Shown piece after piece: positions 2,351 to 39,800 of a stretch of 57,295 nucleotides of DNA. Position 1 is the first letter of the stretch. Each line of letters begins with the position of its first letter. Made by a program: the position numbers and the translations under genes. The notes under the pieces are model-generated. The model had not been told where the DNA came from. It made no database searches and saw only the letters and a program-made list of their open reading frames with translations. Where the stretch lies: the IMG/VR virus record IMGVR_UViG_3300022602_000110, positions 1 to 57,295 of that record, one strand, 5' to 3'. Source of the DNA: a virus. Its lineage: Duplodnaviria > Caudoviricetes.

Positions 2351-3385
2351 TTATTGCTTCTTGTCAACGATAGACTTGTTGCTACCAATGCTAGTTTGAC
2401 CAGCTTTGTCGCCTGTACCAGAACCTACTGGACCTGGAGTCTTATTGTTGTTTGGATAACCAGAACCTTGTTTTTCTAGTTTAGCGCCGTCTTGCATTCC
2501 AGACTTAGATGAGCTAGAAATGTTTTTAGTTACACCTTTAGTAAATTCGCCTTTTGTAGCGCCTACTAAACCACGTGAACCTTTATCAGCATTTGGGCTT
2601 GTACCAGTCATTTCACCAACGCCTAAGTCACCTTGAGCGATATTGTGTGGACGTGCATCTGATGTTGGTTTACCTTTACCAGAACTTGTTGGGCTACGGC
2701 CTTCAACAGGAGCAGGATAGTTTTCGCCTGTGCCAGCACCTAGGTTTTTACCTTGCTGTTTCATAGCGTTACCTTGCCAGTCGTTACCAACTTTTTCACG
2801 GTATTCACGAGTAAATTCACGACCTTCCATTGCTGGCATCATGTCTTCATCTTCCATGTCGCCGCCTTCTTCATCGCCGCCCATGTCGTCTTCTGCGTCA
2901 TCTTTACCTTCGATGTCGTCTAAAGCATGACCGTGGATATCAGGATCTTTTTCTTCTTCGTGTTCTTCGCCAGCTAATAGAGCTTCGAATTCAGCTTTCA
3001 ACTCTTCTAGAGCATCTTCTAAATCCATAACTTTATCTTCTAGGTCGCCTTCTCCACCTTCTTCGCCGCCGAATTCATCTTCGCCGTCATCTTCACCACC
3101 AAATGGATCTTCTTCACCATCAGCATCCATAGCATCATGGTCTTCGATTCCACTAACTAGATCATCAGAGGCATCGCCGCCGATTTCAAGTGTAGTATCT
3201 TCTTCAACAGACTCATCTTCCTGTTCTTCGGAATCTTCGTCCATCTCTTCTTCTGCTTCTTCAGCAATTAAATTTTCATAAATTTCTCTAGATTTCTCTA
3301 CAACTAGTTCATGGAAAAGCTCGTTGGCTTTCTCATGTTCTTCGTTAACAAGAAGATCTAATAGTTGTTCAAACTTGTTAGACAT
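2351..3385 (-). CDS. Acidic prohead core protein (gp67-like) with a G/K/S-rich C-terminal extension
   Basis: Extremely D/E-rich N-terminal half; lies between portal and protease. Confidence 0.55.
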   Translation of the reverse strand: MSNKFEQLLDLLVNEEHEKANELFHELVVEKSREIYENLIAEEAEEEMDEDSEEQEDESVEEDTTLEIGGDASDDLVSGIEDHDAMDADGEEDPFGGEDDGEDEFGGEEGGEGDLEDKVMDLEDALEELKAEFEALLAGEEHEEEKDPDIHGHALDDIEGKDDAEDDMGGDEEGGDMEDEDMMPAMEGREFTREYREKVGNDWQGNAMKQQGKNLGAGTGENYPAPVEGRSPTSSGKGKPTSDARPHNIAQGDLGVGEMTGTSPNADKGSRGLVGATKGEFTKGVTKNISSSSKSGMQDGAKLEKQGSGYPNNNKTPGPVGSGTGDKAGQTSIGSNKSIVDKKQ

Positions 3386-8499: not shown

Positions 8500-9372
8500 A
8501 TGGCTGTTCAAACAAATATAAGAGGTGTTAACCCACTAGCAGGATTAATGCGTCAACCTAAGATTTACATTAAATTACCTAGCGGAGGTCAATATTGGCC
8601 GCAAGGAAGTATTGTTATTCCGGAAAACGGTGACCTGCCTGTATATTCAATGACAGCTAAAGATGAGCTATTATTAAAAATCCCCGATGCATTAATGAAC
8701 GGGCAAGCTATAGTAGAGGTTATCCAAAATTGCATACCATCAATTAAAAACGGATGGGCTATTCCCAACATCGACTTAGATGTAATTCTAATTGCCATAC
8801 GTATTGCTACCTACGGTGAAAAGATGAAAGTACCTTTAGACAATAAAAACCTACTTGATGTAGATTACGAAGTTGACCTAAGAAACATCATGGCAGACCT
8901 AGTGGGACAAATCAATTGGGATCCAGTAGTTCCTGTTAATGCTGATTTAACTATTTTTGTAAAACCCATTACCTACAAGTTGATCACCGACGGTGCTATG
9001 CAAAGTTTTGAAACACAGAAGATTATTCAAATTGCCAATAACTCAGACCTTGAAGAAAAAGAAAAAGTTAAAATGTTTAAAGAGTCTTTTGACAAATTAA
9101 ACTTGTTAAGTATTGGCATCGTTAACAATTCTGTTTACGAAATTCAATCTAGTCAAGGTAGTACAAAAGATCCTGCGTACATTAAAGAGTTTATGGAAAA
9201 CGTAGATAAAGGTGTGTTTGATGCTGTTAAAGCTCATTTGGAAAAAATGAAAGATCAAAACACAATCAAACCGTTACAAATACAACCTACTGCCGCTATG
9301 TTGGCCGCAGGCTACGCAGACGAGATTATTGAAGTTCCACTGGTATTCGATGCATCAACTTTTTTCGTCTAA
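8500..9372 (+). CDS. gp26: Baseplate hub assembly protein, gp26-like (possible tail assembly chaperone)
   Basis: Motifs LPSGG, MTAKDELLL and DLDVILIAIRIATYGE; ends FF-x-stop. Confidence 0.8.
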   Translation: MAVQTNIRGVNPLAGLMRQPKIYIKLPSGGQYWPQGSIVIPENGDLPVYSMTAKDELLLKIPDALMNGQAIVEVIQNCIPSIKNGWAIPNIDLDVILIAIRIATYGEKMKVPLDNKNLLDVDYEVDLRNIMADLVGQINWDPVVPVNADLTIFVKPITYKLITDGAMQSFETQKIIQIANNSDLEEKEKVKMFKESFDKLNLLSIGIVNNSVYEIQSSQGSTKDPAYIKEFMENVDKGVFDAVKAHLEKMKDQNTIKPLQIQPTAAMLAAGYADEIIEVPLVFDASTFFV

Positions 9373-9377
9373 GGCTT

Positions 9378-9596
9378 TTGTCCCTCAACATGGACGAAAT
9401 TGATAAACTAGCAACGTCCATGGAATTAGAAACAAAGGCCGTTAAAAACGAGCTCTTTAGATTATGCTGGTACATGCGTGGTGGCATGACTATAACAGAA
9501 GCATATAACCTAGCGCCCGATGATCGAGAAATTATTGGAAAGATTATCGAAGATAATCTAGAGACAACTAAAAAATCCGGTATACCGTTCTTTTAA
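9378..9596 (+). CDS. gp51: gp51-like baseplate hub assembly catalyst; probably the -1 frameshift extension of gp26
   Basis: Sequence LCWYMRGGMTITEAYNL..DDREI. Lies in the -1 frame, open back to the T TTT TTC heptamer at 9360-9366; no clear SD. Confidence 0.65.
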   Translation: MSLNMDEIDKLATSMELETKAVKNELFRLCWYMRGGMTITEAYNLAPDDREIIGKIIEDNLETTKKSGIPFF

Positions 9597-10405
9597 AGAC
9601 TCATTCCTAAAAACTTACTGTGGAATCCTAAGCTCTCAGGAGTTGCCATTGCTTTGCTAGCCGCTCTGGCCGCACGTTTACGCATAGCATTAGGTGTTTG
9701 ACTTACCTGCCCAGCAACTTTACCGCCAGTACGTTTTGGAGCCGGGGCAGGTGCTTGATTGCTTGCGCTCACTGGACTATTTTGAGTAGCTGGAGCTTGC
9801 TGTCCGCTTAGATTTTGAGCCATTTGACCAAATGCACCGGCGCCAGCATCAGCAGGAGCTTGAGCTTGTTGTGCAGGAGCTTTTGGTGAAAGCATCTTTG
9901 TTAATCCATCTAATTCTTTTTGGATTGCTTTCATTTGTTTTTGTTTAGCTGATATCTGAGCTTTGATACTTTGAGGAGTAGGTTGAGCGCCGCCTTGTTG
10001 TGCTGGAGCAGATTGTGCAGGAGCACCTCCACTCATTGCATTACTGAATCCTTGTTTAAATGCACCACCTGCTGTTTGAGCCGGAGCAGATTGTGCAGGA
10101 GCACCACCACCTGATCCGCCTGAGCTTCCACCTTGTAGTCCTTGAGCAAAACTACCACCTGCTGTTTGAGCCGGAGCAGATTGTGCAGGAGCATTGCCAT
10201 CAGGACCTCCAGCAATAGTATCAGCGGCTCTGTTGTAGCCTTTTCCAATTGCTCGAACAAACCCTGCTGGAACACCTGCTACAGCACCTACTGCTTGTCC
10301 TACACCTCCGATTCCTTTACCTACAGCTGAACCAGCACTTTTAACTTTATCCCATATAGGACCTTCTTGCAATTCAGATTCTACGATAACTTCAGTAATT
10401 CTCAT
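9593..10405 (-). CDS. Low-complexity A/G/Q-rich late protein, possibly an internal head protein
   Basis: N-terminus MRITEVIVESELQEG; APAQSAPAQ repeats; perfect TATAAATA upstream. Confidence 0.6.
   Translation of the reverse strand: MRITEVIVESELQEGPIWDKVKSAGSAVGKGIGGVGQAVGAVAGVPAGFVRAIGKGYNRAADTIAGGPDGNAPAQSAPAQTAGGSFAQGLQGGSSGGSGGGAPAQSAPAQTAGGAFKQGFSNAMSGGAPAQSAPAQQGGAQPTPQSIKAQISAKQKQMKAIQKELDGLTKMLSPKAPAQQAQAPADAGAGAFGQMAQNLSGQQAPATQNSPVSASNQAPAPAPKRTGGKVAGQVSQTPNAMRKRAARAASKAMATPESLGFHSKFLGMSL
10064..10193. repeat. 40 bp perfect direct repeat (10064-10103 and 10154-10193) encoding APAQSAPAQTAGG; a partial third copy at about 10004-10025
   Basis: accacctgctgtttgagccggagcagattgtgcaggagca occurs twice, 90 bp apart. 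Confidence 0.9.
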
Positions 10406-10433
10406 TTTATATTCCTCAAAGAGTGTATGATTT

Positions 10434-10441
10434 TATTTATA
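10434..10441 (-). promoter_or_regulatory. T4 consensus late promoter TATAAATA
   Basis: Exact gp55 consensus, 28 nt upstream of ATG 10405. Confidence 0.8.
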
Positions 10442-10444
10442 CTG

Positions 10445-10885
10445 GTTAATGAGCTAAAGCTCATTTGTTTCTTCGATTACATCTTCGAAACAATATTATC
10501 ATCGTAGATGATTTAAGTATTATCCAGATTCTATGGTCACACTTCGCCCTGCCGGGCGAAAAAAAATGACATTATCCGAGTTCGACAAGTCACTTAGTGT
10601 TAGAGCAGTTACAGTGGCGGTTGACCGGTACCACGAGCTCCGTCTTCATTCAACGGCGGCTTACATATATACACTAACATATATGTAAACGTAGGGTTTT
10701 TCTCCCTTCCTTTTGCCTTTAATCCATCTTCAAACAACTAAATCGCAGGGCTTGATAAGCGATCTTCATCCTTTCGGGTAGTAGTTGAGTACTCTTGCGG
10801 CAAGAGATTTCCGTCCCTGCGATCCGAGATCCAGGTTTAGGGCGCCTGATGTTTGCTGGCGCTTGCTTGTTACCGCTTAAGGAGC
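10445..10885 (-). ncRNA. Candidate large structured ncRNA (family not recognised)
   Basis: No ORF of 60 aa or more in the track; locally richer in G+C. Many stems: TTCGCCC/GGGCGAA with a GGCA loop on the minus strand (10543-10560), a 10 bp stem (10661-10688), ATCGCAGGG/CCCTGCGAT (10742-10750 with 10815-10823), CTCTTG/CAAGAG (10792-10806). Strand is inferred. Confidence 0.55.
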
Positions 10886-11314
10886 CTAAATTTTAGATTT
10901 TATGTGAGAGCCATGGACACGGACTTGGATATGTCCGTTATAATAATTGTCTGATTCTAATACTTTGCGGTCGAATTGTTCGCGGGCCTCAATGTACGAT
11001 GTTTCTGCTTTACTTTTACAATAGTAGAGAATTTCTCGTGTGAATTTGTCTTTGCCTAGTGTGTCTATATCTGCTGTTAGATTTGGACTTGAGCCATAAT
11101 ATTCTTGCCAGTCGGAGTCAATCTTACTCCTAATCTTCTTTTTCTTCTTTGTGCCGTTCTTTAACTTTACAGTCTTGTAGGTCGTTTTACTAAATTTTGC
11201 TAATTTTTTGCCAATATACATCCTACCCGAGACTGTATTTGTAATTAGATATACAAATCCAACACAGTCTTCGGGGAGTTCTTCAACTAAATTGCCTTGA
11301 TAAGTCCAAGTCAT
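10886..11314 (-). CDS. GIY-YIG endonuclease (T4 endonuclease II/DenA-like or Seg-like), 142 aa
   Basis: Motifs GFVYLITNTVSGRMYIGKK, YYGSS, FTREIL and YYN. Confidence 0.85.
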   Translation of the reverse strand: MTWTYQGNLVEELPEDCVGFVYLITNTVSGRMYIGKKLAKFSKTTYKTVKLKNGTKKKKKIRSKIDSDWQEYYGSSPNLTADIDTLGKDKFTREILYYCKSKAETSYIEAREQFDRKVLESDNYYNGHIQVRVHGSHIKSKI

Positions 11315-11466
11315 CCAATGAACCAGGTATTTTTTATTTTTGAATACCTGAGCATAAAAGATTTTGTTCCTAATCTAAAAATAAAACCAAAACTACTTTT
11401 ATCAGATAACCTGTAAAAGTTAAATCCGTTATGTAACGCCTGGCCTTCTTCTCTTAGATAGAACAT
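11311..11466 (-). CDS. 51 aa hypothetical protein (below the ORF track cutoff)
   Basis: MFYLREEGQALHNGFNFYRLSDKSSFGFIFRLGTKSFMLRYSKIKNTWFIG*. Coupled to both neighbours by TAATG and ATGA overlaps. Confidence 0.75.
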   Translation of the reverse strand: MFYLREEGQALHNGFNFYRLSDKSSFGFIFRLGTKSFMLRYSKIKNTWFIG

Positions 11467-11660
11467 TACTTTGTAGCCTTTACCTCTTTGCGGGCATTTT
11501 TAGTTTCTGTAATTTCGTTACGGCGAGCTTTAACTGCCTTGCCCATTTCAGCTAATGCCTTACGAGCACGAGTTCCTGCCGCGCTGTTACCTTTTTCAAA
11601 CTTTTCGTTCTCTGCCATGTATGCTTGATATGCGGCTAATAGTTCTGCTTGTGATGTCAT
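11466..11660 (-). CDS. Histone H1-like Hc1-family small DNA-binding protein
   Basis: Motif EKFEKGNSAAGTRARKAL...RRNEI. Confidence 0.75.
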   Translation of the reverse strand: MTSQAELLAAYQAYMAENEKFEKGNSAAGTRARKALAEMGKAVKARRNEITETKNARKEVKATK

Positions 11661-11977
11661 TTCTTTTTTCCTTTTGGTGTATATTTGTTAACTCTACCTA
11701 GCCCTTTACTTACCCATTCGTGGAATTCGGGAGTTAATAAATTGGGATCATTCGGAACCAATGGATATACTCCGCGGGCTCTTTGCAATATTTCTTTATT
11801 AACGCTTGTAACTATTCCAGTAAATTCTTTTAGTTTAGGTGATATATTTTTAATCTTTTTTTTGAGATCTCTCGATTTTCGTAAGTTTGGACCTTCTAAG
11901 TAATCTAAGTGAGCATTATGTAGCTCAGTAAGGGCTACAATAAGCTCTCCATAGATCTGCTTATACTTGTTTATCAT
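11657..11977 (-). CDS. Basic hypothetical protein
   Basis: Coupled by ATGA overlaps to gp46 and to the Hc1-like gene. Confidence 0.65.
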   Translation of the reverse strand: MINKYKQIYGELIVALTELHNAHLDYLEGPNLRKSRDLKKKIKNISPKLKEFTGIVTSVNKEILQRARGVYPLVPNDPNLLTPEFHEWVSKGLGRVNKYTPKGKKK

Positions 11978-13755
11978 ACTGCTTCAACGAAGTCGATGTC
12001 GTTTGAATAACTGGTAAAACCGTTCTCTTTAATAACTTTAAGAACATTATTAACACGACCGATCAATTCGTCCTTGTGACTAATCAGATAAATGTTTTTG
12101 TTGCGTTCACGTCCCATCTTTTTAAGAACACCGATACCTGCTTCAACACCAGCCGCATCCATACCCGCATCGATTAGTTCGTCAATGAACAACAAGTTGA
12201 TGTGTTGATACAAGTTTTCCCAAACATCTCTAAACGCAAAGCTCAAACTTAAAATTAATCTGTTACGTTCTCCTCGACTTAGGTTATCAAAATCTAAATC
12301 TTGGCCTAGTTGAGTAATTTCAACAGTCAAATCATTTAAGAATGTAACAGTATGCGGCAATCCTAACTTACTAATGTAGTATCCTAGGCGTTTGTTCAAG
12401 TAAGTTAAGTTCTGATCAATGATCTTTTTACGAATAAAACTATCTTTACTGGTTAACAACTTGTATAAGAAGTCTTGATGGTCTCGCAACTTAGTCAATT
12501 CGTTGATACTATCCCAACTAATTTCTTGAATAGCAGTATGTCTTAATTCTTCTATCTGCTCGCTATAGGGATTATGCTCCATAGCCTTGTCTTCTAACTG
12601 TCTTTCTAGACTTGCAAGATTATTTTTATGACCTAACGCTTCGGATTCGTTTTCATAATATGTTTTAGGCGGCTTAGGAAGTTCGCCTATTGACAAAATT
12701 TCTTCTTGTATCTGTTTGCGCTGTGCTGTCATCTTTTGAAAATACTCATAAGCATCGTCATAATTCTTTTCAGCGGTAGCAGTCATCTCTTCATGTTTGT
12801 GATCGTGAAGGTCTTGAGAACATGCAGGACAAGTTTTATTTTGTAATTGTTCTGCTTCCTTAGTATATTTGTCTAATGTTTTCTCGGCCTGTGTGACAGC
12901 AGAATCTAATGTAGCTTTTTGTCTAGTAAGATCACGCAGTTTGTTATTGCTTTCGTTCCATTGCTTTAATTCTGTGTGTAAAACAAGTTCTTTATCAATA
13001 TCTACGCCCTGCAATTCCATAATTGCACGAGCTAGCTTTTCTAAATCATCGTCTTTTTTAACATTCCACGCTTTACTCTTAATAAGCAAGCTATCGATGC
13101 TCTTTTGTACATTGCTGTTAGCGGCTTTGATTGCTTCGATTTTAGCAGTTTCTTGTGTAATTGCGTCCTTGACCTCTTTAGTCTGGGTTTTTAGCAATTC
13201 TGCCTTTTCACTTAATAGTGTAATTCCTAATAATTGCTCAATAACTTCACGCTGTTCGTTTGCTTTTAGGCTTAAAAACGGCTCAGAATAGGTATTTAAA
13301 GCTACCAAATGTTTGAACATGGTATGGCTCATACCTAGCAATTGATCAATTGATTTTTGCGTTTCGCGACTATCTCCTTGGGAATCATCGTCTTTGTTTT
13401 CTTGTTCTTTATCGTCTATGTAGAACTTTAGCACGTTAGGTTTACGACCACGTTCTATTTTAAATTTGCGCCCATTCACTTCAAATTCAACGGTAACTAA
13501 CATATTTTTAGCATTAGTTTTGTTGATTAAGTTTTCTTTGCGAATGTTAGTTAACGCATTACCATACAAGGCATAGCTTAACGCATTGATAATAGTAGTC
13601 TTACCTGTGCCGTTACGACTTCCGCTGTCATCTCCTCCTAAGTCTAGGTTTTCGCCTAGCACCAAGGTGAGATGTTCTTTATCAAAATCTACTGCTTGCG
13701 TTTGATTACCTACTGAAAGGAAGTTTTTCACAGTGATGTTACGGATCTTAAACAT
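11974..13755 (-). CDS. gp46: Recombination endonuclease ATPase subunit gp46 (Rad50/SbcC)
   Basis: Walker A NGTGKTT, zinc hook CPAC, signature LSRGE, Walker B LLFIDE and the ISH motif. Confidence 0.95.
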   Translation of the reverse strand: MFKIRNITVKNFLSVGNQTQAVDFDKEHLTLVLGENLDLGGDDSGSRNGTGKTTIINALSYALYGNALTNIRKENLINKTNAKNMLVTVEFEVNGRKFKIERGRKPNVLKFYIDDKEQENKDDDSQGDSRETQKSIDQLLGMSHTMFKHLVALNTYSEPFLSLKANEQREVIEQLLGITLLSEKAELLKTQTKEVKDAITQETAKIEAIKAANSNVQKSIDSLLIKSKAWNVKKDDDLEKLARAIMELQGVDIDKELVLHTELKQWNESNNKLRDLTRQKATLDSAVTQAEKTLDKYTKEAEQLQNKTCPACSQDLHDHKHEEMTATAEKNYDDAYEYFQKMTAQRKQIQEEILSIGELPKPPKTYYENESEALGHKNNLASLERQLEDKAMEHNPYSEQIEELRHTAIQEISWDSINELTKLRDHQDFLYKLLTSKDSFIRKKIIDQNLTYLNKRLGYYISKLGLPHTVTFLNDLTVEITQLGQDLDFDNLSRGERNRLILSLSFAFRDVWENLYQHINLLFIDELIDAGMDAAGVEAGIGVLKKMGRERNKNIYLISHKDELIGRVNNVLKVIKENGFTSYSNDIDFVEAV

Positions 13756-27867: not shown

Positions 27868-30800
27868 ATGTCAAACTCTAACGATAAAAAATCAATAAAT
27901 TTACTTCCTTCGATCTTTAGAACAGATAAAAATACTAAATTTTTATCAGCAACTATTGATCAATTAATACAAACGCCTCAACTAGATCGTATAAATGCCT
28001 GGGCAGGTAGCACCGATACAAAAACATATAATCCCGCAACAGATCGGTACATCCCCGAAACAATGCCATTAAGAAAAGATTATCAATTAGCACCGGCGGT
28101 GGTTGTGAGAGATCAATATCAAAATATTAATGGCACATTTGGATATGATGATTTAATTAATCAAATTGCATTCGAGGGTGGGAATACTACCCGTTTAGAT
28201 CGATTGTTTAAACCTGAGTACTATTCATACAATCCTCATATTGATTGGGATAAGTTCGTTAACTTCGACCAATATTATTGGTTGCCTGTAGGTCCTGATT
28301 CAGTAACAGTTGAAGGTTTACAAAAAAATGCAATAAGCACTTATACAATAACTGATGCACAAAGCGGTGAAAATATTATTGTAACACCAGATGGATTAAC
28401 TCCGGATGTTACTTTAACACTATATCGAGGAATAACTTATAATTTTAATGTTAATTCAAAACATAAAATTTGGATTAAGACTCGTCGTGTTGGCGGAGCA
28501 AGCCAAGCGTTTAGAACAACAATTACTAATAATGGTATTTCATCAGGGACTATTACACTAGTTGTTGATGAAGATACACCTGCTGTTTTATATTATGTCG
28601 CCGACGATGATGTATTAGTAGGTGGCGAAATTATTGTTAAATCTATTCAAGCTGACTCAGTTATCGATATTACTAAAGAAATTTTAGGAAAACAAAATTA
28701 TACTTCTGGAAATGGCGTTGTTTTTACTAATGGCCTTAAAGTTAATTTTACGGGATCGGTTACTCCTGCTGAATATGCTGGGTATGATTTTATTGTTGAC
28801 GGTGTTGGTAGTGCGATTAGATTGATTCCGTTGAACTCTTTACAAGTTCCTGAATCTTATTCTTCTGCATACGATGAAAATTTTGACGGTACAAATTTCG
28901 ATGAGTTTCCATTCGATAATTTTTCAACCCTACCATTAACTCCTGAATATATCACAATTAATAGAGGTAGTTTAGATTTAAATCCGTGGACTAGATATAA
29001 TCGTTGGTTCCATAAAGATGTTATAACACAAACAGCCGCATACAACGGAACAACTGCTCAGTTTGATCAAACTGCTCGAGCTACTCGTCCTATTGTTGAA
29101 TTTAAACCAAACATTCAATTGTTTAATTTTGGTTCTGTTGCTAAGCCAAACATTCAACACATTGATACTACTACAACTGATGCGTTTTCTAAGGTAGAAG
29201 GACAAATAGGTTATTACGTTGACGGTGTTTTATTAGGTCAAGGTGATCGAGTTATTTTTACAGCAGATCCTGATCCGTTGGTTAACGGTATTACATTTGT
29301 TGTTAATTTTGTTAAATTAAACGGAAACTTTGTTATAAGTCTAGATCGAGCAACTGATGCTACCCCAAATATCGGCGATGGTGTAGTTGTCTTGTACGGA
29401 GAAACACATAAAGGAACTAGTTGGTGGTATAACGGAACTGCCTGGATTGAGGCTCAGGAAAAAACAACCATTAATCAATTTCCACGTTTTGATGTTATAG
29501 ATAAAAACGGTATTAGTTATGGAAACATCGATCATTATGTAAACAACACATTTGACGGTACGTATTTGTTTAACTATGCAGTAGGTAATGGATCAAATGA
29601 TAGTGTACTAGGGTTTCCATTATTATATAAAACTATTGCTGACCAAGGATACTATTTGTTTAACAACTATTTCATGACAGATGAAATGGTAATCGAAAAC
29701 CAATCAGTTACAACTACAATTCCTATTAGTTTAGGTTTTTTAAAAATTAATAATCAGTCAGGAACTCCTGCGTATGAAAATGTGTGGACGCCTGTTCAGA
29801 CATATTCCATTCCTATTATTCAAAGCCAAGTAGTAACAACTACAGCGACTACATCAATAGAAATCATCGCAGTTGATAATCCAGGATATCAAACTATCTC
29901 TGTTAGTGTATTTGTTAACGATGTTAGAAAATTTGAAGCGAGTGACTTTAATTTATTTGCTGATAGAAATAGATATTTTGTAAATTTTACAACTCCGTTA
30001 AATGTTAATGATAGAGTTTTGTTTAAATTATACACAGATGCTATTCCAAATGACAACGGATACTATGAAGTTGCTATAAACTATACAAACAATCCGTTCA
30101 ATGGTCCTATTGAACAATTTACATTGGCAGAATTATCAGACCATGCTGAAACTATGGCTGATACACATCCTCTATTCCGAGGCACATTCTTTGGTGATAA
30201 TAACATTAGAGATTTAGGTGATTTTAATAATTATGGAACTAGATTAATTTCTAACAATACTCCTGCATCTTTTGCTGGTTATTTTATCTCCAATCAAGAA
30301 AATAGCGTTGTATCAAGTCTTCGAAAAGCCGCATTACAATATTCACAATTTAAGTTAGGATTCTTCCATCGTATGCTAAGTATCGGCGGAACATATACTC
30401 CGGCTGAAGCACTGGATATTATTCTACACAACATGAACTTAAACAAGGATATTAATTTCCCTTACTCAAGTTCAGATATGGTAGCGTATGGTAAAGATTT
30501 TACAAGTAATACTTGGACCGTAACAGATTCTAGAAATACAACCTATGCGTTAAACAGTGTGTTTAGTTCAACAGAATTGTCGTTGAGATCTGTGTTAATC
30601 TATTATACAGATGTTAATACTGGCATAACTGAACAATTGATTAACGGTGTTGACTACACCTTTGATAGTGTAGATCCTGTATTTTATGTATTGCGTTCTT
30701 TAAATAAAGGCGATACTCTTTCTATTAGAGACTATGCTTCAACCGCAGGATGTTTCGTTCCTTACTCTCCTACAAAATTAGGATTGTATCCGTCATTTGT

Positions 30801-33800
30801 TCCACAAATTTATTTAGATAATACATACGCTAATGGCCCTCAGTTAGTAATTCAAGGACATGATGGCAGTATAATGGTTGCCTACGGTGATTATAGAGAT
30901 GGAATAATTTTAGAATTAGAACGAAGAATTTATAACAATATTAAAACTCAATACGATTCTGATTTATTCGATATCAACGAAGTAATGCCAGGAGCCTTTA
31001 GATCTAACGATTATTCTTACAGCGAAATATCAGACATACTTGCTCCGGAATTTTTTAAATGGGCAGGATTTTATGGTCTAGATTATTCTAGAAATACTAC
31101 ATCTTCTGATGATCCTAAATCGTGGAACTATCGTTCTTCAATAAACGCATTAAACAATGTACCGTTGCCAGGTGGTTGGAGAGGGATATTTAAATTCTTC
31201 TACGATACAGATCGCCCTCATACATGTCCTTGGGAGATGTTAGGATTTTCTACAATGCCTGCATGGTGGACAAGTGTATACGGTCCAGCACCTTACACTT
31301 CTGGTAACTTATTGCTATGGAGTGATTTAGAAGCAGGCACTATCAAAGATCCTGCAGGAGTTACAATTAATTCTCTTTATGCTCGTCCAGGACTAACTTC
31401 AATTATTCCAGTTGATGCGAGCGGTAATTTATTAGATCCGGCAAAGATTGGCCTAGCACAAAGATTAGATCCTAATCAAACAAATTTAGATTGGAAGTTT
31501 GGAGACATTGGGCCAGTTGAATCTGCTTGGAGAAGAAGCAGTCTATGGCCATTTGCAGTTCAAATTTTATTAGCGTTAGCTCGCCCTGCAAAGTATACTT
31601 CTACAATGTTTGATACAAGTAGAATGAATAAAAATCTTGCTGGTCAATATGTTTATTCTAACAAGGGATTTATTGATCTATCTAACTTATCAATATTTGG
31701 TTACATTTCTACAGGCACTGCTACGTTAAGTGCAGGGTATAGTCCTATTCTTGTCGAAATTGGTAGACAAAAGAAAAGTTCATTTATATCCGATCTATCT
31801 CAAGATTTAGAAAATCTAACAATGAATTTGATGTACAAGGTTGGCGGATTTGTTAATCAAGATAAAATAGATATTATTATTGACTCTGTTAACCCTGCTA
31901 CTAAAAATCCTGGTGTTGCTCTTCCTAATGAAGATTATGAAGTTTTCTTGAATAGAAGTAATCCTGTTAAATCAATAGGAGTGTCTGGTATTATTGTGGA
32001 AAGAACAGATACTGGATTTGTTCTTAGAGGATATGATAAGTTACATCCTTATTTCAATTGTTATTATCCTACTGCAAATAGCACAGACCCTGCATTTACT
32101 GTTGGTGGTAGAACCGAAGAGTATGTTGTATGGACTCCTAGTCCGACCACAGTTGATGTTGCTGTTGGTCCTACAGCAGTTGCAAGTACAAATGCAAATT
32201 TCTATCAAGCAGGTCAATTGGTAAGTTACAATAACTTATGGTATAGAGTAAAAATAAGTCACGAAGCAGGATCGACTTTTAATTCTTCTTATTTTGTGCA
32301 GTTACCTAGTGCTCCTATTATTGGAGGAATATCTGTTCTTAAGGCAATTACTTATTCTGACACAGTAACGACCATACCTTACGGTACAGAATTTACAAGT
32401 TTACAAGAATTGTATTACACAATCATGGGATATGGCCAATGGTTGTTACAACAAGGTCTTGTGCTTGATCAATTCAATACTGACCTTAGTGAAGTTATTG
32501 ATTGGAATTTTACAGCTAAAGAATTATTATTCTGGACCACTCAGGCATGGGCAAGTGGTAGTGTTATCACGCTATCTCCATTTGCTAACAACATGACATT
32601 TACATCTACTGATTCAGTAGCTGACAATTTATTAGATCCATTAACTGATTATAGCATATTGAAATCAGATGGAACACCGTTAGCAAATGATTATATTAAT
32701 ATTGTTAGACAGCCTGGATCTATTACCATTAATACTTTAAATCCAAAGGATGGTATTTACTTTGTGCGTTTGAATTTTATTCAAACAGAACATGCTATTG
32801 TACTGCGTAACCAGTCTATTTTTGGTGACATTATCTATGACATCGAAACAGGATATAAACAAGCTAGAATTAAATTAGTGGGCTTTATAACTGGCGGGTG
32901 GGACGGCGGCTTAAATGCTCCGGGATTCATTTATGATCAAGCAACTATTGGTTCATGGACTGAATACACTGATTATGGAATAGGCGATGTTGTACAATAC
33001 GTTGGCAATTATTATTCTGCATTAACAAAAATTTCAGGAACAAGCACATTTAAATTTAGTGAATGGCAAATACTTCCCGGTAAGCCTACACCAAAATTAC
33101 TGCCAAACTTTGATTATAAAATTAATCAATTCCAAGATTTTTACAATCTTAATATTGATAATTTTGACAGTGCTCAACAAAAAATGGCACAACATCTTAC
33201 TGGATATCAACCACGACCTTACATGGATAACATCTTTGTCGATCCTATCAGCCAGTATAAATTTTATCAAGGATTTATTCGTGAAAAAGGTACGCAGAAT
33301 GTCTTTACAAAATTAAGTAAGGCCAGTGAAGCAGTATTGCACGGTGAGATTGATTACAACGAAGAATGGGCGTTTAGAATTGGTGCGTATGGATCCTATA
33401 CCACTAAGAAAGATATTGAAATCAGTTTAAATGAAATTCAATTTCAAGAAAATCCTCAAATTATTCAGTTCACTGATATAGCACCTGTAAATCCTAATGA
33501 TTTATTGATTTATCAAACTCCTTCAGATGTACTTGTTAAACCTACTGACTATACTAACGATCCATGGCCTACAAGTCCTGCCTCTAGTTTAGACTACACA
33601 AGCATGTTGCCTGTTGCAGGTTATGTTCGTCTTGATGATGTAACATCTACTGCATTTAACAAATATAGTTTATTAGACATTGCTAACAATAGAAATATCA
33701 ACGAAGGCGACACAATATGGGTTGGCTTTAGAGAAGATGGCAGTTGGGATGTTTTACGTTATTCTAAAGTTCCTACTAATATTACAGCGGCCGCAATTAA

Positions 33801-36800
33801 TTTCCCAGGATCAAACATAATATTAACTACAAATCTTCCACACAAATTAAGTGTAAACGATTTAATATCTGTTAGTCAGTTAGATCCTAGTATTGATGGT
33901 GTATATCAGGTACAATCTGTTCCTAACGTAAATCAAATTATTGTTGCTTCTAATTTAACTTTAATTTCTCCTACCCTAACACCCGGCGTGGGGTTGCTAT
34001 TTAAATTTGCCAGTGTACGATTTAACACATTTGATGATTTAAATAATTTTGAATTCTTAAATGATTTAAAAGAAGGCGAAAACATTTGGGTAGATAATGA
34101 TGGAAATAATCGCTGGGGTGTATTTGAAAAAGTTAACGCCTATATTCCTAGTGCTGTTTCATCACCTACGTATTCATTCCCAGTAAGACCAAATGAACAA
34201 TATGGTGCTACTGTTGCAAGTTCTGTAGATGGAACAAAATTGGCAGTATCTTCTCCTTATTTTAATTCTATCTTTACAGGTTACGGTAAAGTTTATGTAT
34301 ATAGAAAAGATGGTCAAGGTAATAGTTTAGTGAATGTTGCCCAACTGACTTTAAATGAACATAGCGGAAACACTTATGTCAATTCAACTACAGATTCAAG
34401 TTTCGGTCAAAGTTTAATAGTTGATGGTTTGACAAATTATGTAACAATAGGTGCACCTAAAGCAAGTTTGGTTAGACATATTACAGGTAGTAATTTTGCA
34501 GGAACTACAGGTACGGCATCTTCTTATGTAAATCAAGGTGTTGTAAAAATTGTTAATGTTAATTTTACAACAACAAATGTAACTAATCCTTATGTGCTAG
34601 TAAGTCCAACTCCTGCATCAAATGCGCAGTTTGGATATAGTATTGTTCAAAATAATAATTCATTTGTGATTTCTAGTCCTGGACAGAATTCTATTCACAT
34701 ATTTGATTATTCTGTTAACAGTGACAGCACATTAACTTTTGAATCTCCTATTACAATTACTCACGGAAATCTTCCTACAGATGCTTTTGGTTCATCGATT
34801 GCAACTAGCAATGATGGTGCGATTATGGCTATTGCGGCTCCGGGTCCTGCGTTAAGCACTGGTACTGTTTATATCTATCATAATCAAATATTGACACAAT
34901 CTATTACTGTAGATACCCTAGCACCTTACGATACTGTGCTTAAAGGTTCTGGTTTTGCAAGTCAAGTGTTATTAAATCAAGATGGCACATATTTGTTTAT
35001 TACTGCACCTAGATCTATTTCTAATGGAACTAAGATAGGTAAAGTATTTGTAATGACATTGAATACTGCGACCTACCATTATGAATATAGTCAGACTGTT
35101 ACTAGCCCATATAATAATTTAGGTGTAGAATTTGGAACAGACATTGGTATTGATCCTACAGGAAATGTATTAACTGTTTCAGGCATTGGAGCATTAAAGC
35201 CGGTAACATTTGATGTATATTCAAAACGTTTAACCACTGTTTCAACTGACTATACAAACGACCCTGCTTCTACAACATCGACCAATGCAACAACATTCGA
35301 TTCTAAATCTACATTGTTCCACGGCGATCTAAAATCGTCAGGATCTACCTTTGTATTTGATAGATATCAAGATATGTTTGTATATGGTCAAGAAATTTCT
35401 AACCCGGCAGTGGAAGAATCAAGTGTATACGGTTCTTCTGTTGCAGTGACCGATAGCGTTATAATTGTAGGGGCACCAGGCTTGTCTAACGTGACTACAC
35501 AGTCGGGCGGTATTTACATATTTGATCTAAATTCAAACTATAATAATAGTTGGGATTTACTAAGACAAGAACCTGATCTTGTAGACCTTTCTAAGGTACA
35601 GAAAGCATACACTATTGATGATACAACCTCTCAAGTTCGGGATTATTTAGAAATTATTGATCCTGTTAAAGGCTATATTCCTGGGCCTGCCGCACAAGAA
35701 TTAAGTTACAAATCATTAAGCGATCCGGCAATTTATTCTATTGGTAATGCAGGAACAGTTAACAATACCAATGCCAACTGGATAGATGAGCATGTTGGTA
35801 AACTATGGTGGGATTTAAGCACTGTTAAATTCACATGGTATGAGCAGGGCGAATTAGAATTCCGTAAGAACAATTGGGGAGGAGTATTCCCAGGATGTAC
35901 TATTGATGTCTATGAATGGGTGCGTTCAACATATCTACCAAGTCAATGGGCCGGTCTAGCAGATACAACTGACGGCCTTGTTCTTGGAATGAGTGGCCAA
36001 CCTAAGTATCCTGATAATAGTGTATTGTCTGTTAAACAAATTTTTAATTCTACAACACAACAATTAACTAATGTTTACTACTATTGGGTTAAGAATACTG
36101 TCGTTGTTCCTAGCAATACTACAAGAAGAATTAGTGCTTATAATGTAGCAAGTTTAATTGCCAATCCTCTAACAAATGGAATTCAATATATTTCTTTCTT
36201 GTCAGATAATGCTGTATCATTGGCTAACTGCAAACCTTCTTTATCATCGTCTGATATTCATCTAGCAGTTGAAATGGATACTATAAACAATTCTATTCCT
36301 AAACATACAGAATGGTTGTTATTGCAAGAGGGCGATATTAATAGTTTGCCTGGCAATGCGTTAACACAGAAATTATTAGACAGTCTTTTAGGACATGATA
36401 CACAAGGTAATCAGGTTCCTGATCCTACATTGCCTAACAGATTAAAGTATGGTGTTGAAATTAGACCTCGTCAAAGTATGTTTGTTGATCGTCTAGGTGC
36501 TATTAAGATATTAGTTGAATATGTTAATAGTATTTTGTCTCAGAATTTGATCACAGACAATTATGATCTTACATTATTAAAATCTAAAGAAGAGATTCCT
36601 AATATTGCATTAGGTACATACGATATTTTAGTTGAAGACTTGACAGCCCGAGATTTATTATCTCCTAGATATGTTTCTCAAGCAACTTTAGCATGTACAT
36701 TAAAGTATGGAAAAATTTCAACAATATCAATTGTTAATCCTGGATTTGGTTATAAGACTGCTCCTACAGTAACTATATTAGGTACAGGTACTGGCGCAGA

Positions 36801-39800
36801 GATTGGACTAACGATTGATGCATCAGGTGCAGTGGTATCTGCAAAAATAATTAGTGCAGGATCTGGTTATACAACAGAACCTACATTTGTTGTAAGACCA
36901 TTTACTGTTATTGTACAAAGCGATTCTAGTGTAAACAATAAGTGGAGTATATATCAGTGGAACTATCAAACATTGACCTGGGGTTATCCGGTGCATGTTC
37001 AAAGTTTTGACACAACTAACTATTGGTCATATGCAGATTGGGTTAGTCCAAAGTTTAATCCAAATCAAGAATTCTTGATAACATTAGATGCGCCGTACGA
37101 GCTTGATGTATTAACTAATGTTCCTGCTGGAAATTATATTAAAATTAGAAATAACGGAAATGGGCAAGCAATCGTTCTTAAGAAGTTATCAACAGTTGAT
37201 CAACCCGGTTCTTATAATTTAGAATATGATTTAGTTTACCAACAAAATGGTACTATTCAATTATCAAATAGTTTATGGAACTATACTTCTGGTACATCTG
37301 GATTTGACAACATTGCGGCATATGATCAAACAGGCTTTGATTCAACTCCGGATCAAGAAGCTAGTAATATTTTTAATGCTATCAATAATAATATTTTTGT
37401 AGGCGATTTACAAATATATCTAAATCTCAGTTGGTTTAAACTTGTTCGTTATGCAATGACAGAACAAAAATTTATAGATTGGGCGTTTAAAACATCCTTT
37501 ATCAGTGTAACAAACAATGCAGGGCAGTTAAATCAGCCAGCTACTTATAAGTTAGATGATACTAGTTATTACGAAAGTTTTATAGCGGAAGCTAAACCTT
37601 ATAGAACAAAAGTTAGAGAATGGACAGATGCATATACTTCTACAGAAGTATCAATGTCTATGACTACTGACTTTGACGTTCCGTCTTATTATAATACATC
37701 AACTCATCAGTTTACTCCGGTATCATTTGGCTCATCATTGTTAACACAACAACCTTATAGATCTTGGTTTGACAATTATACATATTATATAAAAAGTATT
37801 GATGTGTTTAATGGCGGATCCGGATATCAATATCCGCCTCAAGTTATTATTGAACCGACAAATGGTGATATAGTAACGACTACCGCTACTGCTGTAGCCT
37901 ACATTGCGTTAGGGGCAGTGACACAAATTGTCGTTACTAATCCAGGTGCAGGATACACATCTAATCCTAGAATTATTTTAGCAGGTGGTGGCCCAACAAC
38001 ATTAACAACTGCGACAGCAGGTGCCAAGTTAGCAAATGATACTACACGAGCTACATTGACACATATTAAGTTTGATAGAGTTGCGGGATATAATGAAATT
38101 ACTACATCAACTGCCTATGACAGCTTTGTCGGTGACGGGTCTAAACATGTATTTCCATTAACATGGTATCCGTCTACTAATCCTGCTGATTTCACTGTAT
38201 TGATAGCAGGCATTTTGCAGTTACGTTCAGATTATACTATCAATTATAGTACTACCAAATTTAAAGGTTATACAAAAAATTATGCTACTATAACATTAAA
38301 TTCTGTTCCAACGTTTGGTCAATTAATTGAAATTGATTATGTTAAGAACGTTGAGTTATACCATGCAGTTGATAGAATTCAACACTTTTATCAACCGACT
38401 AGTGGAATGCCGGGTAATACTGCTACGCTATTAATGAATGGATTAGAATATCCAGGTGTAACAATCGACACATTGCCGTTCCAGGCTTCGTTGGGTTGGG
38501 ACACAGCACCGTTTGATCAAAGTAGTTGGGACGATTATGTTTCGGAAACAGGAGTTTATATTGCATCCAGCCCTGTAGTTAGAGCAAACCCTGCGTTTGC
38601 TAACGGAAATTATGTATTTTCAGTTTCCGCCACCCCGGGCATTAGAAATATACAAATTGGTGCAACTGCTACATTTACAAATACTACAACTATATATACT
38701 GTTAACAGTTCAACAGCTAACGCACTTTATAGAGGATATTGGGATATTGGAATTACAGGAACAAATATTCCCGTATTCTCTACAAGCGAATCTATAACAT
38801 TTACTAATCCTAATGCAGAAGTATTTGCGCTTCCTTTTGTTCCTGCGGTAGGTACAACTATTACTGTATATGTAAGTACAGGTTCTGTTGTTAATGCTAC
38901 AAGAATTGATGATCCTAACTATGGAACAACTGGTACAATAACTAACGCTAATGCTACTATGAAGAGCTTTAACGGTGTAGTTGGAATTAACACAATTAGT
39001 ATTGGTCAAATAGTTGGTCCTAACGACATAATTATATTCCGTCCTTGGACAAGCGATGGAACAACTATTCCCAACGATGTAGATTTAGATACATTAGTTT
39101 ACGGTGGAACTATTACCCCAGGTTATATTAGTGAATCAGATGAGTATACTGATATTAATTTAGATGGCGATGCATTCATTAGCTCATCTAATAGCCACGG
39201 TCCTGAAGAAAATCTTCCTGGCAATATTTTAGAAAGTATTGGAATTAGCATTTACGAACGTCCGCTAGCAGTCAATCCATTGATAGTTAATAAAAAGTAT
39301 TTCACAGACGGAACTGTTAGAACATTTGACCTTGGCATCACTCCGCCTAATGTAGATAGTGTATTTGTGTTGTGGAATGATACGCCGTTATATAATACTG
39401 TCGATTTTACGATTGACTATGTTAACAATACACTGTCAACAAACAACACATTGACCAATGGTTTCCTATCGTTGACTACCTTGGGAGTTGGCGGAACAGA
39501 ATTATTAGAAAACGACACAGTGGTTGTAACTAATACTGCGACAACTCAATATGCTTTTGCATCGGCTTTCTCAGAAGTTCAAAGTGCTTATGTAACACTT
39601 AATGGTGTATCAATTGCTCCGCCAAACTATACATTGGTAAGTAACACAGATACATATGGTGTTGGTAGAGCAACTATCAGTTTGAACACAACAACACATG
39701 TAAATGATGTTATTCAGGCTTGGTTGTTTGCGGCTCCATACAAAGCATTTAGTCAGGTAGTTGATCAAATCACTACTGCAAGTTCTGGAGTTAGTGTGTT

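Follow-up and report, generated by a model that had tools for sequence, protein, structure and literature searches.

We analysed a 57,295-bp virus record from IMG/VR (IMGVR_UViG_3300022602_000110; the whole of this stretch is called the window here), which is estimated to be 16% complete and comes from a T4-like phage encoding Rad50/gp46-like, Mre11/gp47-like, T4 baseplate and tape-measure-like proteins. At the locus of interest, a minus-strand gene for a small GIY-YIG protein is separated from the next minus-strand gene (9593-10405) by 480 nucleotides (nt), in which all open reading frames (ORFs) are 51 amino acids (aa) or shorter and none is conserved. An earlier sequence-only reading of the window had pointed to this gap without a long ORF beside the nuclease and had proposed an unrecognised structured RNA in it; the gap was borne out, and the stretch marked in that reading is practically the conserved element that we describe (~10872-10447). 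The element is a structured non-coding RNA (ncRNA) of ~425 nt, which starts 18 nt (by its Rfam match) past the GIY-YIG stop codon, on the same strand as the nuclease gene and at the end of a gp47/gp46/Hc1/GIY-YIG gene string. Only its 5′ third had been catalogued before; the ~290-nt co-varying extension that reaches to ~10447 is new. We regard the identity and extent of the RNA as near certain.

Only one Rfam family, RF01718 (Polynucleobacter-1 RNA), reached its gathering score anywhere in the window; the match lies on the minus strand, with 115 bits (cut-off 37) and E = 2.7e-24, and covers positions 1-141 of the 141 in the model. The element is thus not wholly unrecognised, as had been supposed, since its 5′ 136 nt are a full-length member of a catalogued family. 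A permissive Rfam scan of 10300-11500 gave nothing credible besides RF01718 (the next-best E values were 0.74 and 3.7), and no match to Intron_gpI, hammerhead, HEARO/omega RNA, GOLLD or ROOL in that interval. ARAGORN and the Rfam models for transfer RNA (tRNA) and transfer-messenger RNA (tmRNA) found no genes in the window, in agreement with the earlier statement that the element is neither of these. Polynucleobacter-1 was published from 16 sequences over 141 positions, drawn from Burkholderiales and from fresh or estuary water; the tabulated part of that source lists it as probably cis-regulatory and leaves open whether it is a 'switch' (Weinberg et al. 2010, PMC2864571). A literature search for Polynucleobacter-1 or RF01718 returned nothing besides this paper, and the family has stood in Rfam since 2010 as a small motif of no known role from few freshwater sequences.

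To collect relatives, we used a degenerate pattern made from the most conserved stretch of the motif, which matched at least 120 stretches in IMG/VR; phage loci were drawn from the matches listed, 80 of which look true by a second motif. RF01718 scored above its cut-off in all 46 IMG/VR records picked as look-alikes and in none of 4 picked as chance matches. Each record holds one copy, as do the two among them that are essentially complete, with 354,680 bp (100%) and 345,154 bp (99%), and the estimated completeness of the RNA-bearing phage records places their genomes at ~350 kb throughout. With short words, blastn aligned 10737 to ~10512, and in closer relatives to 10384, at 62-86% identity; 74 alignments of 225-360 nt lie 3′ of the Rfam model, spread over most of the 80 look-alike loci. 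A blastn search of 10406-10885 against 50,697 GenBank phage records gave no match; at the sensitivity of blastn the RNA is thus absent from cultured phages, which leaves it for now without a laboratory system.

We then evaluated covariation in an alignment of 51 copies that are less than 95% identical pairwise, whose first row is window 10511-10872 (minus strand) and which has 49 invariant columns. RNAalifold predicted 50 pairs from this alignment, 35 of them with compensatory changes, in helices some of which lie past the Rfam model. A structure was also drawn by hand on the alignment and its pairs were counted, with the 3′ partners slid by 1-3 columns as controls. For the whole structure in the register of the window, 86.8% of cells were paired, compared with 36-44% when slid, and 445 cells were changed on both sides, compared with 73-119. 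The 36 pairs 3′ of the Rfam model, in majority register, showed 91.5% of cells paired (39-49% when slid) and 271 compensatory cells (51-68 when slid); 26 of these pairs were changed on both sides, and none of 500 shuffles matched their covariation score. Within the Rfam domain, P1, P3, P4 and P6 were 95-100% paired in the 51 sequences, with four pairs each changed on both sides. The fold of the window itself was only modestly better than that of 100 shuffles per strand (z = -2.69 on the minus strand, z = -1.96 on the plus strand), so the case for the RNA rests on the comparative data. A covariance model built from the phage extension (123 positions) recovered the two loci L040 (E = 2e-10) and L105 (E = 2e-4).

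The helices also reveal the strand on which the element acts. Read on the minus strand, helix cells contain 238 G-U and 45 A-C combinations; since this asymmetry is reversed on the other strand, selection acts on the minus-strand transcript, as expected of the multi-domain RNA on the nuclease's strand that had been proposed. In the 51 non-redundant homologues, stops interrupt every one of the six frames (minimum 1-3 per frame, median 5-8), and the position of the longest ORF is inconsistent. The RNA is non-coding, and window 10406-10885 has no conserved ORF.

Table 1 Features of the RNA and its neighbours in the window (boundaries and the basis of each assignment).
Feature	Position	Strand	Basis or remark
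GIY-YIG protein, 142 aa	10886-11314	(-)	PF19835 (SegE_GIY-YIG), residues 3-129
Whole structured RNA, ~425 nt	~10872 to ~10447	(-)	extent set by where conservation stops
RF01718 domain, first 136 nt of the RNA	10732-10867	(-)	Rfam, compensatory changes
P1	10842-10862	(-)	compensatory changes
P2	10817-10834	(-)	RF01718 helix
P3	10792-10806	(-)	compensatory changes
P4	10783-10787/10735-10739	(-)	compensatory changes
P5	10770-10777	(-)	RF01718 helix
P6	10741-10764	(-)	compensatory changes
Single-stranded linker UUGUUUGAA, nearly invariant, joining the Rfam domain to the extension	10729-10737	(-)	alignment of 51 copies
Hairpin E1	10693-10707	(-)	3 pairs, all changed on both sides, 89.5% of cells paired
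Long hairpin E2	10659-10690	(-)	11 pairs, all changed on both sides
H-type pseudoknot domain	10602-10654	(-)	three helices, all with compensatory changes
Pseudoknot strands a / a′	10650-10654 / 10620-10624	(-)	a′ within the loop of stacked helices c and b
Pseudoknot helix c	10637-10641/10602-10606	(-)	covariation count
Pseudoknot helix b	10631-10634/10614-10617	(-)	covariation count
Twin unit A: GAACUC + N7	10571-10583	(-)	sequence, comparison
GC-rich hairpin H, between the twin units	10542-10561	(-)	5′ arm takes in the end of a U-run
Twin unit B: GAAUCU + the same N7 as unit A	10519-10531	(-)	sequence, comparison
Short hairpin after unit B	10498-10512	(-)	window sequence; a short hairpin there in many relatives
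Hairpin with G/A-rich internal loop around a short capped inner stem	10465-10493	(-)	comparison, 31 loci
Terminal hairpin, abutting the G/A-loop hairpin; presumed 3′ end of the RNA	10448-10465	(-)	comparison
TATAAATA octamer, outside the RNA	10434-10441	(-)	in front of gene 9593-10405
Next gene, 270 aa, low-complexity, Ala/Gln/Gly-rich	9593-10405	(-)	no family match

Nine stems had been named from the sequence of the window, and seven of them co-vary in homologues: 10448-10465, 10465-10493, 10543-10560, 10661-10688, 10735-10740 with 10782-10787, 10792-10806 and 10842-10862 (Table 1). The stem at 10498-10512 is present in the window. The ninth, 10640-10656, did not hold up, as its 5′ arm is invariant and its 3′ arm varies uncompensated, whereas a pseudoknot pairing of the same bases co-varies. 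Of the three pseudoknot helices, numbered 4, 5 and 6 in the structure, the first has 97.6% of its cells paired and 3 pairs changed on both sides, the second 92.4% and 4, and the third 93.6% and 2; the invariant sequence GGUACCGG...ACCGCC is located in this domain. The GNRA loop proposed for 10543-10560 exists in the window as GGCA and is unconserved in relatives.

The G/A-loop and terminal hairpins fall outside the alignment and were checked in the 31 non-redundant loci with enough 3′ sequence. The G/A core was found in 25 of them, enclosed by an outer stem of 4-8 bp of wholly different sequence; in the remaining six the search pattern missed the core or matched in the wrong register. A hairpin of 6-8 bp, again differing in sequence, follows the G/A-loop hairpin after 0-1 nt in 24 of the 25, and the terminal hairpin has no trailing U-run. 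Some copies of the G/A loop resemble a hammerhead core; this candidate was rejected, as the motif is unconserved across loci and has no Rfam match. A conserved unit-A hairpin or terminator was likewise discarded: RNAalifold gives hairpin H as the sole helix of the twin-unit sub-domain, and folds of single sequences disagree.

The twin units, which flank hairpin H, differ in sequence between lineages. Their heptamers (N7) are identical to each other in 59 of the 60 phage loci with both units, over 10 heptamer variants, at a unit-to-unit spacing of 49-58 nt. The three central bases always differ between unit A and unit B, and by eye the 2-3 bases ahead of the pyrimidine triplet also tend to agree. 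For the three well-varying N7 positions, mutual information with the unit B column was 0.85-1.30 bits and with other alignment columns at most 0.64 bits; no third column was coupled to the units. Because they are direct and not inverted repeats, the units cannot pair with each other. Folding predictions leave the units unpaired with about average probability, and not consistently so from one homologue to the next, and N7 complementarity to the flanks of its own sequence was no better than to the flanks of other sequences. Most simply, the two units would share one lineage-specific partner, for which they provide a concrete handle; no RNA class known to us explains such covariation. The only place that recurs as a possible partner of N7 is the UUGUUU linker, which was rejected, being invariant and needing four G-U pairs, so that it cannot co-vary. 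In the main phage clade, positions 4-6 of N7 read UAA or UGA at a spacing of ~50 nt, which is the basis of a second rejected idea, translational bypass; in the window there is an in-frame stop 5 codons upstream and no ORF, and bacterial units lack the stop.

The RNA also occurs in bacteria. A first genome-wide pattern scan found chance matches only (0 true among 120), and a stricter pattern was used instead; over the genomes of 185,579 species it yielded 36 loci, of which Burkholderiales (Limnohabitans, Polynucleobacter, Comamonadaceae, Oxalobacteraceae and others) account for 26. RF01718 scored 69-104 bits in all 20 Burkholderiales loci tested. Judged by motif, the 3′ features follow in the same order as in the phages, namely the pseudoknot strand, the twin units around a hairpin and the G/A-core hairpin. 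The unit arrangement is the same with quite different heptamers, which are identical to each other in 12 of 19 copies and differ by one mismatch in 6. A DUF6641 gene lies divergently upstream in 25 of the 26 loci and a GIY-YIG gene in none; a search for a DUF6641 homologue in three phages (G000, G003, G008) found none, although it was a weak search in which the controls were silent too. Downstream, on the same strand and 0.8-1.5 kb away, a 188-aa tyrosine recombinase is present in 9 of the 15 loci whose downstream sequence extends to 1.5 kb or more; its match to FimB/E-type invertase models is full-length, whereas that to Xer models is confined to the catalytic half. These copies lie in chromosomal islands, mobile elements of freshwater bacteria that are probably the hosts of the phages.

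Several bacterial records show irregular copies. Limnohabitans sp. Bal53 has one full and one truncated copy, and in three loci (L248, 3968-4084, minus strand; L246; L270) the RNA is broken off mid-sequence. An IS3-type frameshift pseudoknot (ALIL, 98.9 bits) lies ~870 nt past the break in L248, where an insertion sequence probably split the RNA gene. Two contigs of 1.5-2 kb in an 'uncultured Bacteroidetes' metagenome-assembled genome (L247, L249) contain the RNA in its phage form, with E = 1e-25 against the model derived from phages, and are probably mis-binned phage contigs.

These contexts bear on the published suggestion that the motif acts in cis, i.e. that the RNA is a riboswitch-like or other regulatory leader of downstream genes. 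The many invariant junction nucleotides, the same-strand recombinase in bacterial loci and the table entry of the 5′ domain as likely cis-regulatory (Weinberg et al. 2010, PMC2864571) all speak for a leader. In at least seven phage loci, however, no co-directional gene follows the RNA: in L018, L026, L031, L037, L054, L058 and L061 the next gene is convergent, with its end ~390 nt past the RNA core, which excludes a 5′ leader or riboswitch as the general explanation. Nor is the downstream gene conserved; the 270-aa protein of the window has a partial match at this place in one relative only (L033), and its gene has an octamer of its own, TATAAATA, past the terminal hairpin, which we take to be the T4-type late promoter consensus and which also follows the terminal hairpin in L006, L023, L041 and L081. 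We consider a leader very unlikely.

A DNA-level element was the alternative offered by the sequence-only reading, as a replication origin; further forms of it would be a packaging site or sites of recombination, and the twin units would then be where a protein binds or crossover takes place. Such an element would suit an occurrence common to phages and recombinase-carrying bacterial islands, and the twin units repeat the same 7-bp core in direct orientation, about the length of tyrosine-recombinase crossover regions (6-8 bp). The excess of G-U over A-C nevertheless marks selection on one transcribed strand, and a pseudoknot with compensatory changes has no DNA-level reading, so that a DNA element is excluded as the general explanation and an origin is disfavoured. 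Furthermore, a unit spacing of 49-58 bp is out of helical phase, and crossover sites would not tolerate three central bases that differ between the units. We regard this explanation as exceedingly unlikely.

We next consider the GIY-YIG gene. Its product matches PF19835 with E = 4.4e-33 (114.6 bits, cut-off 25) and phrog_447 with E = 7.8e-37, and a sequence search of the PDB gave nothing below E = 0.2. Across 46 unique homologues G-x-V-Y, Y-x-G-x-K, F-x-R and Y-N are invariant and a Glu is nearly so; we presume the catalytic role of these motif residues from I-TevI. The family is single-copy in 493 GenBank phage records, mostly T4-like cyanophages. Records of cyanophages and of Sinorhizobium, Stenotrophomonas and Erwinia phages, as well as PHROGs, label it 'NAD synthetase'; the Pfam match and the invariant GIY/YIG motifs make this label unfit and suggest a propagated annotation error. 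The T4 seg homing endonucleases offer the closest comparison, as the window protein spans the full length of the N-terminal GIY-YIG domain of SegE. With only 142 aa, it has no room for the DNA-binding domain, and genes of its type are syntenic in 46 of 51 loci and single-copy rather than sporadic. A conserved phage gene would be distributed in this way and a sporadic selfish one would not, and a free-standing homing endonuclease did not fit on either count. A group I intron did not fit either: in relatives Hc1 ends 6 nt before the GIY-YIG start codon, so that there is no 5′ intron half, and the TIGR01453 match was below threshold (E = 2e-4, 21.5 bits, cut-off 56).

The tie between gene and RNA was counted in the 51 loci with at least 500 nt of upstream sequence. 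In 46 of them a GIY-YIG gene (69-87% identical) lies directly upstream, ending a few to ~60 nt before the RNA and 34-88 nt before the search pattern. In three (L042, L045, L053) it lies 715-1057 nt upstream with one extra same-strand ORF between, and in two it is absent: L077 has a 172-aa PD-(D/E)XK nuclease (PDDEXK_15, PF24608, E = 1.1e-27; 2593-3111, minus strand) in its slot, and L040 has a winged helix-turn-helix gene and an opposite-strand ORF, with no nuclease beside the RNA. The complete genome G008 has genes inserted between gp46 and GIY-YIG and between the RNA and the gp26/51-like genes; its GIY-YIG gene and RNA are still 8 nt apart. Conversely, RF01718 was not found downstream of the GIY-YIG gene in the three cultured phages checked (Melnitz-3, phiM7 and S-SSM4). 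The obligate nuclease-RNA system envisaged by the sequence-only reading therefore fails in both directions, with the RNA unlinked from the gene in L040, L077 and all 26 Burkholderiales loci and the gene unlinked from the RNA in all three phages checked; the GIY-YIG partnership is not obligate. Synechococcus phage S-SSM4 (L279, 1971-2672) shows the GIY-YIG gene followed after ~195 nt by a tRNA-Arg gene, another case of this family just upstream of a stable-RNA gene.

A looser partnership, in which the RNA guides or scaffolds neighbouring nucleases or recombinases that lack a DNA-binding domain, has to be weighed against the same contexts. It would account for the upstream GIY-YIG gene in 46 of 51 loci and its persistence there despite insertions, for the other small nuclease in the same place in L077, and for the bacterial recombinase that consists of the catalytic part only; the twin units, being variable, lineage-specific and mutually identical, are also like programmable segments. 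Against this, no enzyme family is common to all contexts (L040 has no nuclease and 6 of the 15 bacterial loci have no recombinase), another gene splits GIY-YIG from the RNA in L042, L045 and L053, the three phages checked among the 493 records lack the RNA, and no target of the twin units was found in the loci, the window, G003, G008 or the bacterial loci. We consider it quite unlikely. A more specific form of the idea, to which we give a slightly smaller chance, is a programmable module in which the scaffold would present two identical 13-nt segments that pair with DNA or RNA sites sharing a 7-nt core and would aim the adjoining enzymes, i.e. GIY-YIG or PD-(D/E)XK nucleases in the jumbo phages and the tyrosine recombinase in the Burkholderiales islands. 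It is kept alive because three different enzymes lacking such domains adjoin the RNA in different lineages; if true, it would be an RNA-guided system on enzyme families that, to our knowledge, do not use RNA guides. The adjacency is explained more economically by transcription: a promoterless RNA would depend on read-through from the nuclease gene, and this dependence would allow only same-strand insertions between the two, as seen in L042, L045 and L053.

Evidence on transcription came from four lake-water RNA libraries (X1-X4; four study codes, all from 2017 and possibly from one campaign). A simple promoter scan found no promoter-like site directly upstream of the RNA. The libraries hold 49-69% of the sampled words of 10440-11320, and their contigs (at least 99% identity) together cover 10559-11342. 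Contigs from three of these libraries (X1, 10584-10947; X2, 10855-11064; X4, 10576-11061) bridge the stop codon of the GIY-YIG gene and the RNA. They show only that this junction is present in RNA libraries, which matches the prediction of co-transcription and supports the earlier proposal that the RNA is transcribed with the nuclease. At a depth of 3-5, contigs over the RNA stop at 10559-10593, and none lies on 10416-10558 or 11457-12040; at that depth contigs alone are evidence neither of a 3′ end nor of absence.

The missing promoter and the bridging contigs would also suit a cis-acting 3′ module of the early/middle operon, a structured 3′ untranslated region (UTR) that stops transcription between convergent blocks of genes, shields the GIY-YIG/gp46/gp47 message from 3′ exonucleases or sets the nuclease level. 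The two abutting hairpins in which the RNA ends point the same way, as does its position as the last element of a gene string that is opposed in many loci by convergent genes. Such a module is, however, overbuilt, as ~425 nt with a pseudoknot, 49 invariant columns and twin units exceed what a terminator or stabiliser needs, and the terminal hairpin lacks the U-run. The Burkholderiales RNA lies divergent from DUF6641 and at the 3′ end of no gene, which excludes a 3′ UTR as the general explanation, and the GIY-YIG family does without the RNA in Melnitz-3, phiM7 and S-SSM4. We judge this explanation to be unlikely.

The RNA libraries also bear on self-processing, whereby the twin units would be two equivalent processing sites, cleaved either by the RNA or by a single endonuclease, that free or splice out a ~50-nt module containing hairpin H. 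Near-identical sites bracket one hairpin at a spacing of 49-58 nt in phages and bacteria alike, and the complex body, rich in invariant positions, is ribozyme-like. The Rfam scans gave no match to a known family of self-cleaving ribozymes, the four libraries contained neither a joint nor a skipped form of the RNA, and lineage-specific co-variation of the sites would be needless unless the cutter changes too. This makes self-processing highly improbable.

Taken as a whole, the data are best explained, with a probability that we put slightly above even, by a ~425-nt structured ncRNA that acts autonomously and consists of a pseudoknotted scaffold with twin units acting in trans. In the phages the RNA would lack a promoter of its own and be made by read-through from the GIY-YIG gene; it would be a functional RNA in its own right, neither a UTR nor the nuclease's obligate partner. 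The conserved pseudoknotted body would fold into a defined shape and serve as a scaffold, a role suggested by its size, the pseudoknot and the many invariant junction bases. The twin units look like a specificity element because they are the sole part both variable and constrained: they have no conserved internal pairing, are lineage-specific and are almost always identical to each other. They would be exposed and would engage a lineage-specific partner in trans, either two copies of it or two sites on it; a nucleic acid seems likelier for this partner than a protein. For this trans-acting mechanism taken separately, we put the chance at about even at best.

A number of observations weigh against this explanation. 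Action in trans is inferred from a pattern, and searches for what the units might pair with came out empty: complements of N7, exact or G-U-tolerant, had no consistent location when sought up to 2.5 kb from 71 loci; the window contains 12 matches to the unit pattern, with 11.1 expected by chance, and in the complete phage genomes G003 and G008 such matches are no commoner than those of a reversed-pattern control; and the 6-kb bacterial loci have no consistent complement. The covariance model of the phage extension found none of the Burkholderiales copies, and the homology of the bacterial 3′ part rests on motif order, not on score. Library contigs give neither strand, ends nor level, and DNA carry-over is possible; their depth on the RNA (3-5) is no higher than on the GIY-YIG gene, so there is no sign of an abundant stable RNA. 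Finally, adjacency to GIY-YIG in 46 of 51 loci is equally expected from a functional partnership.

Elsewhere at the locus, gene 9593-10405 has the deepest contig cover of 9000-12500 in the four RNA libraries (depth 10-97), with contigs extending up to 10415. On the other side, an 8-bp inverted repeat (11324-11331/11343-11350), which forms a hairpin on the minus strand, stops 9 nt short of the start codon of the GIY-YIG gene, in a 151-nt gap that is absent in relatives, where Hc1 ends 6 nt before the gene; the hairpin could be the Hc1 terminator or could limit translation of the nuclease. Farther away, a single plus-strand ORF of 4,447 aa occupies 27868-41211.

If the proposed explanation holds, RF01718 represents the 5′ domain of an RNA that ranks among the larger and more intricate ones of bacteria or phages without a known function; this RNA has one copy per genome throughout a clade of ~350-kb freshwater phages and is shared with mobile islands of their probable Burkholderiales hosts. 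Two annotations are corrected by the analysis, the 'NAD synthetase' label on the phage GIY-YIG family and the boundaries of the Rfam RF01718 model, which are too narrow. Compared with Polynucleobacter-1 as published, the window RNA is also of fresh water, the libraries holding the stretch coming from lake water; it differs in that the published motif is only the 5′ third of the ~425-nt RNA, to which at least 36 further co-varying pairs, a pseudoknot and twin units are added, and in that it is here a single-copy gene of ~350-kb phages for which a 5′ leader is impossible in several loci.

Among other known systems, GOLLD and ROOL are phage and mobile-element RNAs of several hundred nt with many helices and pseudoknots and no known function. 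The window RNA is likewise large, multi-helix and pseudoknotted and occurs in phages or mobile elements, but has no sequence or architectural match to either; the twin units are a feature not known to us from them. The window RNA resembles HEARO/omega RNAs (of IscB and TnpB) in being encoded next to a small DNA enzyme, with which it is probably co-transcribed, and in that its scaffold is conserved while short segments of it are lineage-specific; the IS110 bridge RNA, with its two loops for specificity, brings the twin units to mind. A nuclease-associated guide RNA nevertheless did not fit, given no Rfam match and no strict co-occurrence of RNA and nuclease. Unlike HEARO/omega and bridge RNAs, the RNA described here adjoins other enzyme families, occurs apart from those enzymes and has no transposon ends; and unlike the loops of the bridge RNA, which match donor and target, its twin units are identical to each other.

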